6,799 nucleotides of DNA from a virus. Taxonomy: Duplodnaviria; Heunggongvirae; Uroviricota; Caudoviricetes. The stretch lies in IMG/VR virus record IMGVR_UViG_2690316278_000009; one strand, written 5' to 3'. Every line of letters begins with the position of its first letter. Position 1 is the first letter of the stretch. Below the pieces are notes generated by a model. That model was not told where the DNA came from. It worked only from the letters and a program-made list of their open reading frames with translations, and did not search any database. Positions 3,814 to 4,190 of this stretch are shown here, one piece after another. The translations under genes were made by a program, and so were the position numbers.

Positions 3814-3937
3814 GGCGACTGGTGACGGTATAATCTCTGATTATCAAAACGAGAATGACGCGGGTTTAGTGGCACCGGGCTGAACTCACCGGGAGGCACC
3901 CGGCACCATGTGCATGATGATACAGATACGCGGCTTT

Positions 3938-3960
3938 AGCCCCTCTCCGGAGGGGTTTTC
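3938..3960 (+). terminator. Intrinsic terminator
   Basis: Stem CCCCTC (3940-3945) / GAGGGG (3950-3955), tetraloop TCCG, followed by TTTTCTT. Confidence 0.6.
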
Positions 3961-3968
3961 TTGTGGGC

Positions 3969-3997
3969 AAAAAAAGCCCGCGCTGGGAGACGCGGGC
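3969..3997 (-). terminator. Intrinsic terminator for a minus-strand transcript
   Basis: Stem GCCCGCG (3976-3982) / CGCGGGC (3991-3997), 8-nt loop, preceded on the + strand by seven A (3969-3975), which is a U-tract after the hairpin on the minus strand. It faces the + strand terminator at 3938-3960. Confidence 0.5.
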
Positions 3998-4065
3998 GGC
4001 AAGGAATAAACAATAAAACGTGAAGTAATATTTCAGCTGGCGAATAATACCCCATAGTAATCACT

Positions 4066-4088
4066 CTGCGCAACTGCGCGGTCTTTTT
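4066..4088 (+). terminator. Candidate intrinsic terminator or structured RNA element
   Basis: Stem CTGCGC (4066-4071) / GCGCGG (4076-4081) with one G-U pair, tetraloop AACT, followed by TCTTTTT. Confidence 0.35.
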
Positions 4089-4190
4089 CGAATTGCGGGC
4101 TGTCGTCTCTCTTCTGCCATTGTCCTGTAACTTCCGGACTTCAGCCCGCTCCTTATTTTACTCACAATATTATCCCGGCCGGGAGGATTC

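Follow-up and report, generated by a model that had tools for sequence, protein, structure and literature searches.

Terminators on both strands upstream of nanS-p in a lambdoid prophage very probably mark a convergent pair of Hfq-type small RNA genes

Introduction

Why do three terminator-like hairpins, two on the plus strand and one on the minus strand, lie within about 250 bases of prophage DNA just upstream of nanS-p, in sequence that holds no long open reading frame? The question arose in a stretch of 6,799 nucleotides (IMG/VR record IMGVR_UViG_2690316278_000009; Caudoviricetes), hereafter the window. An earlier note, made from the letters alone, had read the cluster at 3835-4090 as small RNA genes on both strands, and had pointed to the regulatory RNAs AsxR and AgvB of EHEC prophages as possible relatives.

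Such an arrangement has precedents. Convergent sRNA pairs situated between a moron coding sequence and a conserved ORF downstream of PR′ were described by Tree et al. in 2014 (PMC4104026), with examples in the Sakai prophages Sp3, 4, 5, 9, 10, 11, 15 and 17 (PMC4104026). A review from 2021 named these pairs dyads and called their purpose unclear (PMC7873438). AsxR and AgvB are anti-sRNAs that sponge a core sRNA, FnrS or GcvB. Here we describe the elements of the cluster, their relatives in other prophages and bacterial genera, and a reading in which the hairpins delimit two small RNA genes.

Results

The intergenic region within the late region of the prophage

The window is the late region of a lambdoid prophage. 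It contains the antiterminator gene Q (51-419; PF03589), a DNA methylase gene (1048-2193), three tRNA genes (2234-2618) and small ORFs including a DUF3927 gene (3335-3586), and an intergenic region of 604 bases separates the DUF3927 gene from nanS-p (4191-6044; DUF1737, SASA and DUF6645 domains). A P21-type holin gene and a DUF1327 gene lie 3′ of nanS-p. Six stretches of the window are masked with N, none of them inside 3835-4090. Sequence, family membership, homology, conservation pattern and folds could all be observed directly.

The intergenic sequence (3590-4190) is present with 100% identity in many extraintestinal E. coli (UTI89, S88, IHE3034, 55989, ATCC 11775), and some match to it was found in 1452 of 5426 complete E. 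coli genomes. The prophage is thus not one specifically of EHEC. RefSeq annotates no RNA gene at the matches to 3590-4190.

Several other elements of the late region were recorded. A strong plus-strand terminator at 3664-3687 (AGGCCCATCCGCTCCGGTGGGCCT followed by TTTT), located ~80 bases past the DUF3927 gene, would form a further barrier separating the moron genes from the sRNA pair. Right after Q (420-526), promoter-like TTGATT (425-430) and TAAATT (447-452) are followed by a strong terminator with its stem at 500-519 and a U-tract. Together they would yield a late transcript of ~65-70 nt analogous to StxS, and 24 bases of this terminator match the stretch between Q and the tRNAs in Sp5. On the plus strand at 6127-6155, a terminator-like hairpin lies between nanS-p and the likely true start of the holin gene, and 6124-6194 shares 93% identity with the sequence directly 5′ of the holin in EPEC prophage PP4. 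Other prophages have PasA and PasC between nanS-p and the holin; neither is found in the window.

A terminator cluster with little coding potential

A consensus terminator scan located all three hairpins of the cluster where they had been proposed (3938-3960 and 4066-4088 on the plus strand, 3969-3997 on the minus strand). The first plus-strand stem (3938-3957) is followed by TTCTTGTGGG, the minus-strand stem (3997-3976) by TTTTTTT down to 3969, and the second plus-strand stem (4066-4081) by TCTTTTTC. Terminator-like sites are enriched in the region, since 17 were found in the whole window compared with 5.5 ± 2.3 in shuffled sequence. The plus-strand terminator (3938-3963) and the minus-strand terminator (3997-3969) are separated by a gap of 5 bases.

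No ORF of at least 60 aa overlaps 3835-4090 on either strand, as originally noted; the longest there, on the minus strand at 3936-4073, encodes 45 aa. Several ORFs of 33-45 aa do exist, and some phage and RefSeq records carry "hypothetical protein" labels at the region, as would suit a locus coding for proteins shorter than 60 aa. However, comparison with 15 near-identical variants shows four of the five short ORFs disrupted in 11-14 of them, and RefSeq marks its entries as partial pseudogenes. The remaining ORF (4061-4192, 43 aa), which lies mostly outside 3835-4090, is intact in 13 of the 15. Small-protein coding was rejected because the short ORFs are broken among the variants, and we regard it as extremely improbable.

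The plus-strand element belongs to the STnc100 family

Comparison with the Rfam model RF02076 gave a match of 161 bits (cut-off 47, E 3.5e-37) in which the full-length model, positions 1-206, aligned at 3759-3968 of the plus strand. By this match the plus-strand element is an STnc100-family sRNA gene, for which neither Rfam nor reviews list a function. The counterpart in Sakai Sp5 scores 207.7 bits and lies immediately 3′ of stx2B. This Sp5 copy is EcOnc27/sRNA103 (PMC4104026; PMC12711010; PMC12370729), for which Hfq-CRAC and northern evidence exists, with bands of ~235/247 nt (PMC4104026 Table S2), and which was detected in vesicles by qPCR (PMC12370729).

Folding of the whole plus-strand RNA was no better than that of shuffled sequences (z -1.06); folding energy was therefore uninformative and covariation was used for STnc100. 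A search for an exact 23-base core motif in one genome per species returned 88 stretches across Enterobacteriaceae. RNAalifold analysis of 40 diverse copies from many genera produced a structure of 23 pairs, eight of which show pairing-preserving changes on both sides; the 3′ hairpin of the core is uninformative in this respect because it was fixed by the search pattern. The conserved structured core corresponds to 3789-3910 of the window. It is closed by the helix CAUGGUG/CACCAUG and contains two conserved hairpins, CCCCC/GGGG and CCGGG-AGGCA-CCCGG, as well as variable middle helices. The window has both of these hairpins and the closing helix.

The core is followed by a variable single-stranded stretch (3911-3937), the presumed seed of the window allele, and by the intrinsic terminator of the STnc100-family sRNA (3938-3963; -17.1 kcal/mol). 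The stretch differs wholly among the window, Sp5, Sp4/PP6 and AgvB-type loci, with conserved flanks on either side, and the terminator stem is preserved by compensatory changes across prophage types.

The 5′ end was placed by comparison. A probable sigma-70 promoter at 3753-3784 (-35 TTGCCT at 3753-3758, A-rich -10 within 3775-3784) aligns with the TTGACT/TTAAAA promoter ahead of the mapped 5′ end of PasD2. In 39 of 69 STnc100 cores of other species a -10 element ends 7-10 nt before GGTGAAT, often accompanied by a good TTGAC -35 in otherwise unrelated sequence. This placement points to a start at the closing helix, as at the mapped PasD2 5′ end, which corresponds to ~3788. The transcript therefore probably runs from ~3788 to ~3963, and its length would be ~180-240 nt with a start near 3788 or further upstream. 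A longer form starting near 3730 may also exist, because the EcOnc27 bands measure 235/247 nt, the EcOnc27 Hfq site maps to window 3748-3827, beginning upstream of the start at 3788, and the block conserved with Sp5 begins at ~3730.

The earlier note had drawn a start at a TATAAT (3829-3834), with an RNA of about 120 nt. The hexamer is present, but it was rejected as the plus-strand promoter because it lies inside a variable internal hairpin of STnc100 that is missing in Sp5 and Sp4. With the comparative start near 3788, the RNA would be ~180 nt or longer rather than 120.

In at least 14 species of Klebsiella, Kosakonia, Enterobacter, Raoultella and Citrobacter, the core lies on the same strand 80-200 nt 5′ of a gene for a 233-aa KdgM-family porin (PF06178, 254.9 bits), with no strict terminator in between (loci L100, L102-L104, L108, L110, L113, L120, L128, L135, L139-L141, L145 and L163 of the species-representative genomes). 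In these linked loci the core may serve as leader of the porin gene. The KdgM family includes the sialic-acid channel NanC, and in phages the core precedes the sialate esterase gene nanS-p.

The porin linkage bears on whether the STnc100 element works mainly in cis within a longer plus-strand transcript, either at the 3′ end of a moron or late mRNA or in the nanS-p leader, instead of being an independent trans-acting sRNA. The same can be argued from EcOnc27, whose bands exceed the promoter-to-terminator distance and whose Hfq site begins 5′ of the comparative start, and from the upstream extent of the block conserved with Sp5. Against this, a well-placed promoter recurs right before the core where the upstream sequence is unrelated, PasD has the core in common and appears on northerns as a discrete, Hfq-dependent RNA of 172 nt, and a terminator follows 20-40 nt past the core in most of the 38 terminator-bearing loci. 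We therefore consider a chiefly cis-acting element rather improbable and prefer an STnc100-family sRNA with a terminator and a probable promoter of its own.

A minus-strand RNA homologous to EHEC and EPEC small RNAs

The minus-strand RNA ending at 3969 is ~97% identical to EcOnc08/21/42 of EHEC and to E2348C_1409.E2348C_1408.IGR of EPEC. Comparison with Sakai Sp4 and EPEC PP6 showed the sequences to be collinear (nhmmer E 3e-13). The relatives have been seen as RNA: EcOnc08/21 have Hfq-CRAC and northern evidence in EHEC (PMC4104026 Table S2), and the EPEC homologue is a RIL-seq sRNA candidate (PMC8550237 Table S6). With the STnc100 match on the other strand, the proposal of small RNA genes on both strands is borne out at the level of homology.

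The intrinsic terminator (3969-3997; stem 3997-3976, U7 tail 3975-3969; -16.9 kcal/mol) is nearly invariant among 15 variants. Just before it lies CCUUGCC (3998-4004), the candidate seed. Further upstream, TTGCGC (4073-4068) and TATTAT (4049-4044) are separated by an 18-nt spacer (promoter 4044-4073). Both hexamers are invariant in the 15 variants and four spacer positions vary, a pattern that fits a real promoter giving an RNA of ~70 nt. The predicted short form (3969-4038), homologous to EcOnc08 and the EPEC RNA, folds with z -2.86 into an open U-rich body followed by the terminator, a modelled fold typical of an Hfq sRNA. The Hfq-CRAC site of EcOnc08 maps to window 3971-4043.

In EPEC, the RIL-seq targets of the homologue include cfa, dppA, emrA and tir, with a target motif GGCAAGG/GGCAGGG (PMC8550237 supplement). 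CCUUGCC is complementary to this motif and the seed is identical in the window; by homology, the minus-strand sRNA would pair with GGCAAGG sites in cfa, dppA and other mRNAs.

With an 81-base query (3969-4049) that spans the sRNA and its -10 hexamer, matches at ≥95% identity were obtained in 987 of 5426 complete E. coli genomes (~18%) and in 55 phage records, and none of them is annotated as RNA. A search for distant homologues among 88 species-level and 80 phage loci recovered close E. coli relatives only. OmrA-B gave a weak match at 3969-4057 on the minus strand (25.2 bits against a cut-off of 40, E 0.17), which was taken as terminator resemblance and set aside.

How long the main product is can be read in two ways. 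A 5′ extension (4039-4162) would create a form of ~180-270 nt antisense to the nanS-p leader, and short and long forms may coexist. The alternative to a short main product is that the RNA of ~180-270 nt, starting near or inside the nanS-p start region and acting as a cis-antisense RNA on the nanS-p leader, dominates, with the 70-nt form minor or absent. In EHEC a northern band of ~271 nt was reported (PMC4104026) with a probe that maps to window 4043-4077, upstream of the short-form start; it is the sole published northern probe for this RNA. The EPEC homologue was estimated at 182 nt (PMC8550237), equivalent to window 3969-4150. A second Hfq-CRAC site, that of EcOnc21, maps to 4049-4134, the 194-nt form folds with z -2.24, and a promoter-like ATGCCA-17-GATAAT occurs on the minus strand at 4197-4169. 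This last candidate overlaps the ribosome-binding site and start codon of nanS-p, and its conservation is therefore uninformative. For the short form speak the invariant hexamers flanking a variable spacer, and AsxR of Sp5, whose mapped RNA of 53 nt relies on the equivalent -35. The RIL-seq chimeras and the target motif indicate a 3′ seed, common to both forms. We judge a predominantly long product possible but doubtful, and prefer the short form. The ~70-nt transcript from TTGCGC/TATTAT proposed at the outset thus stands as far as the hexamers and the EcOnc08 site support it, with the qualification that forms of ~180-270 nt are reported in relatives.

The pair occupies the position of the EHEC dyads

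The two genes lie on opposite strands with adjacent terminators. Q, the methylase, the tRNAs and the DUF3927 gene lie 5′ of the pair, and nanS-p and the holin 3′ of it, which fits the placement given by Tree et al. Sakai Sp5 has an identical layout: STnc100 occupies 4423-4628 of this locus (L005), and AsxR lies one base beyond on the opposite strand (4630-4682); the flanks of the two genes are collinear with those in the window. AsxR of Sp5 scores 88.1 bits against its Rfam model, and the phage loci 55-96 bits.

Among 20 representative phage loci, STnc100 is found on the plus strand upstream of nanS-p in 19; the exception (L023), with just 278 bases of upstream sequence, gave no match. An AgvB/AsxR-family partner follows directly after STnc100 in five of the 19, and several others carry the window-type partner, for which there is no Rfam model. 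Across these pair types the flanks are conserved, with the STnc100 core on one side and hairpin 3 (4066-4088) and the nanS-p leader on the other, and the middle is swapped: the STnc100 seed, both terminators and the body of the minus-strand RNA.

This pattern is clearest when the window is set beside individual prophages. EcOnc27/sRNA103 and AsxR in Sp5 share with the window their position, the STnc100 scaffold, the back-to-back terminators, hairpin 3 and the nanS-p leader. Everything from the STnc100 seed through the entire body of the minus-strand sRNA is different, however, with the EcOnc08-type RNA in the window replacing AsxR, and the moron is stx2 in Sp5 as opposed to the methylase, tRNAs and small ORFs of the window. 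EcOnc08/21/42 (Sakai Sp4 and Sp15) and the EPEC RNA are near-identical to the window and collinear with it from the minus-strand terminator to the nanS-p start, including the CCUUGCC seed and the promoter hexamers; they are distinguished by a few point changes, located in the spacer of the promoter, in the U-rich body and in the loop of the terminator. The STnc100 partner in EPEC PP6 has lost its 5′ half to an ISEc13 insertion.

AsxR (RF02703) and AgvB (RF02702) resemble the minus-strand RNA of the window in slot and orientation beside STnc100 and in a -35 located inside hairpin 3, and all are short RNAs with a 5′ pairing region followed by a GC-rich terminator. Their terminator and body sequences differ from those of the window, their seed lies at the 5′ end whereas that of the window RNA adjoins the terminator, and the RIL-seq partners of the EPEC homologue are mostly mRNAs (5′ UTRs and coding regions) rather than a sponged sRNA. 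Neither RF02703 nor RF02702, whose conserved 3′ region spans ~42 nt, matched the window at E ≤ 1, and nhmmer detected no similarity between the minus-strand RNA and AsxR/AgvB-type loci. Identity with AsxR or AgvB was rejected on these grounds, and the RNA fills their slot without being a member of either family. The suspected link to these RNAs consequently holds for the Q-to-lysis locus and the equivalent slot in Sp5, and fails for the RNA itself.

Variations on this organization were also observed. Tandem STnc100 copies precede nanS-p in L008 (601-791 and 1069-1278) and in L061 and L024 (222-415 and 691-879). In a large class of phages (L025, L026 and others), ~620 bases of unrelated sequence lie between STnc100 and nanS-p.

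Hairpin 3 and its relation to PasD

Hairpin 3, the outer of the two plus-strand hairpins, is a weak terminator with a U-tract that holds the -35 of the minus-strand promoter. All pair types examined have the hairpin, with small differences in the stem, as do PasD loci. In every pair type it is more stable on the plus strand because of G-U pairs. Its stem is shorter in the window type, with -9.3 kcal/mol compared to -18.3 in Sp5. TTGCGC lies inside the hairpin and recurs in the promoter of AsxR in Sp5. Together with the near-invariant minus-strand terminator and the compensatory changes in the plus-strand stem, the recurrence of hairpin 3 agrees with the expectation that the hairpins would be conserved in related prophages.

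Downstream, a long nanS-p leader hairpin (GCGGGCTG...CAGCCCGC) was observed at 4095-4149. Multiple compensatory changes preserve it in phage loci that have diverged (L054, L076 and L084), and single-base variants give mixed signals on the strand used.

PasD1 and PasD2 (EPEC E2348/69; EcOnc13 in EHEC) resemble the window in promoter layout and in the 5′ structured core (GCAUGGUGAAUCC...), and PasD2 likewise lies between a DUF3927 gene and nanS-p. In a MAFFT alignment the PasD1/PasD2 terminator coincides with hairpin 3 of the window, ~100 nt beyond the terminator of the plus-strand RNA, whose 3′ part differs from that of PasD. The PasD RNAs differ in having the seed UGUGAG, in ending at the hairpin 3 homologue and in being without a convergent partner, whereas the window has its own terminator and a minus-strand gene inserted ahead of hairpin 3. 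Against RF02076, PasD1 and PasD2 score 41 and 38 bits, below the cut-off. The hallmark of PasD (UGUGAG followed by the GGCUGCGCA...GCC terminator, ~172 nt) does not occur in the window, where the promoter and the 5′ core alone align. As judged from these alignments, the plus-strand RNA of the window is a relative of EPEC PasD and the counterpart of EcOnc27/sRNA103. A preprint from 2026 likewise holds that PasD and STnc100 share a common ancestor.

Because hairpin 3 serves as the terminator in PasD loci, it looks ancestral: it has the appearance of an original scaffold terminator that now acts as a weak back-up terminator and promoter element.

An old RNA scaffold and a possible cassette insertion

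The core occurs with its own promoter in dozens of genera, and its position 5′ of KdgM/NanC-family porin genes hints at an origin as a cis-acting leader tied to sugar-acid uptake. We tentatively suggest, as a possibility short of an even chance, that phages did not invent the core, an old RNA scaffold of Enterobacteriaceae in this view, and that the phage pair arose by insertion of a cassette before hairpin 3. The cassette would have brought a new seed and terminator together with a convergent sRNA gene and would have separated the scaffold from the terminator it originally used, and hairpin 3 would afterwards have been co-opted as the -35 of the new minus-strand gene. If true, cassette swapping between the conserved flanks gives each prophage a different pair of seeds.

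A convergent arrangement was also observed outside Escherichia. In Raoultella sp. (L148, ~6456-6560), an STnc100 copy is followed by a convergent terminator, and the RNA that would end at it carries CCUUGCC beside a different terminator stem. It may be a distant analogue of the minus-strand sRNA of the window, with which it has no detectable overall similarity.

Discussion

Taken together, the results support a model in which the terminator cluster very probably belongs to two convergent, independently transcribed Hfq-type sRNA genes with back-to-back terminators, at the moron site of a lambdoid prophage. The pair would lie between the Q-dependent late promoter and nanS-p with the lysis genes. 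The plus-strand gene would comprise a structured 5′ domain (~3789-3910), an allele-specific stretch (3911-3937) that presumably pairs with targets, and its own terminator (3938-3963). The minus-strand gene would be transcribed from TTGCGC-18-TATTAT and end at 3969, with CCUUGCC displayed ahead of the terminator. In the lysogen, both sRNAs would be made from their own promoters and act in trans, and the plus-strand terminators would insulate nanS-p and the lysis genes from moron and read-through transcription until Q-modified polymerase passes. For the window, we infer expression, Hfq binding, targets and the insulating role from the orthologues.

The insulating role also raises the question whether the hairpins are just terminators and insulators for the late operon and its neighbours, with no RNA product that matters. 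They do lie between the late promoter and the lysis genes, and back-to-back terminators on the two strands could form a two-way barrier. Such a barrier leaves unexplained a conserved 120-nt structured domain with covariation, the conserved promoters, and the orthologues' binding to Hfq, their bands on northerns and their chimeras with targets. We regard it as very unlikely, and retain the two sRNA genes as the explanation of the cluster.

The feature is of a known kind, since Tree et al. 2014 describes the same arrangement: it is a convergent pair of the type already described, and both members have named homologues. With this assignment the terminator cluster is explained and the gene boundaries are corrected. 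Extraintestinal pathogens such as UTI89 and S88 also carry the convergent pair of EHEC Stx phages, base for base, in prophages of the non-Stx kind. Because cfa, dppA, tir and further mRNAs for virulence and the envelope are among the contacts of the EPEC homologue, the unannotated copies may alter host regulation in many strains.
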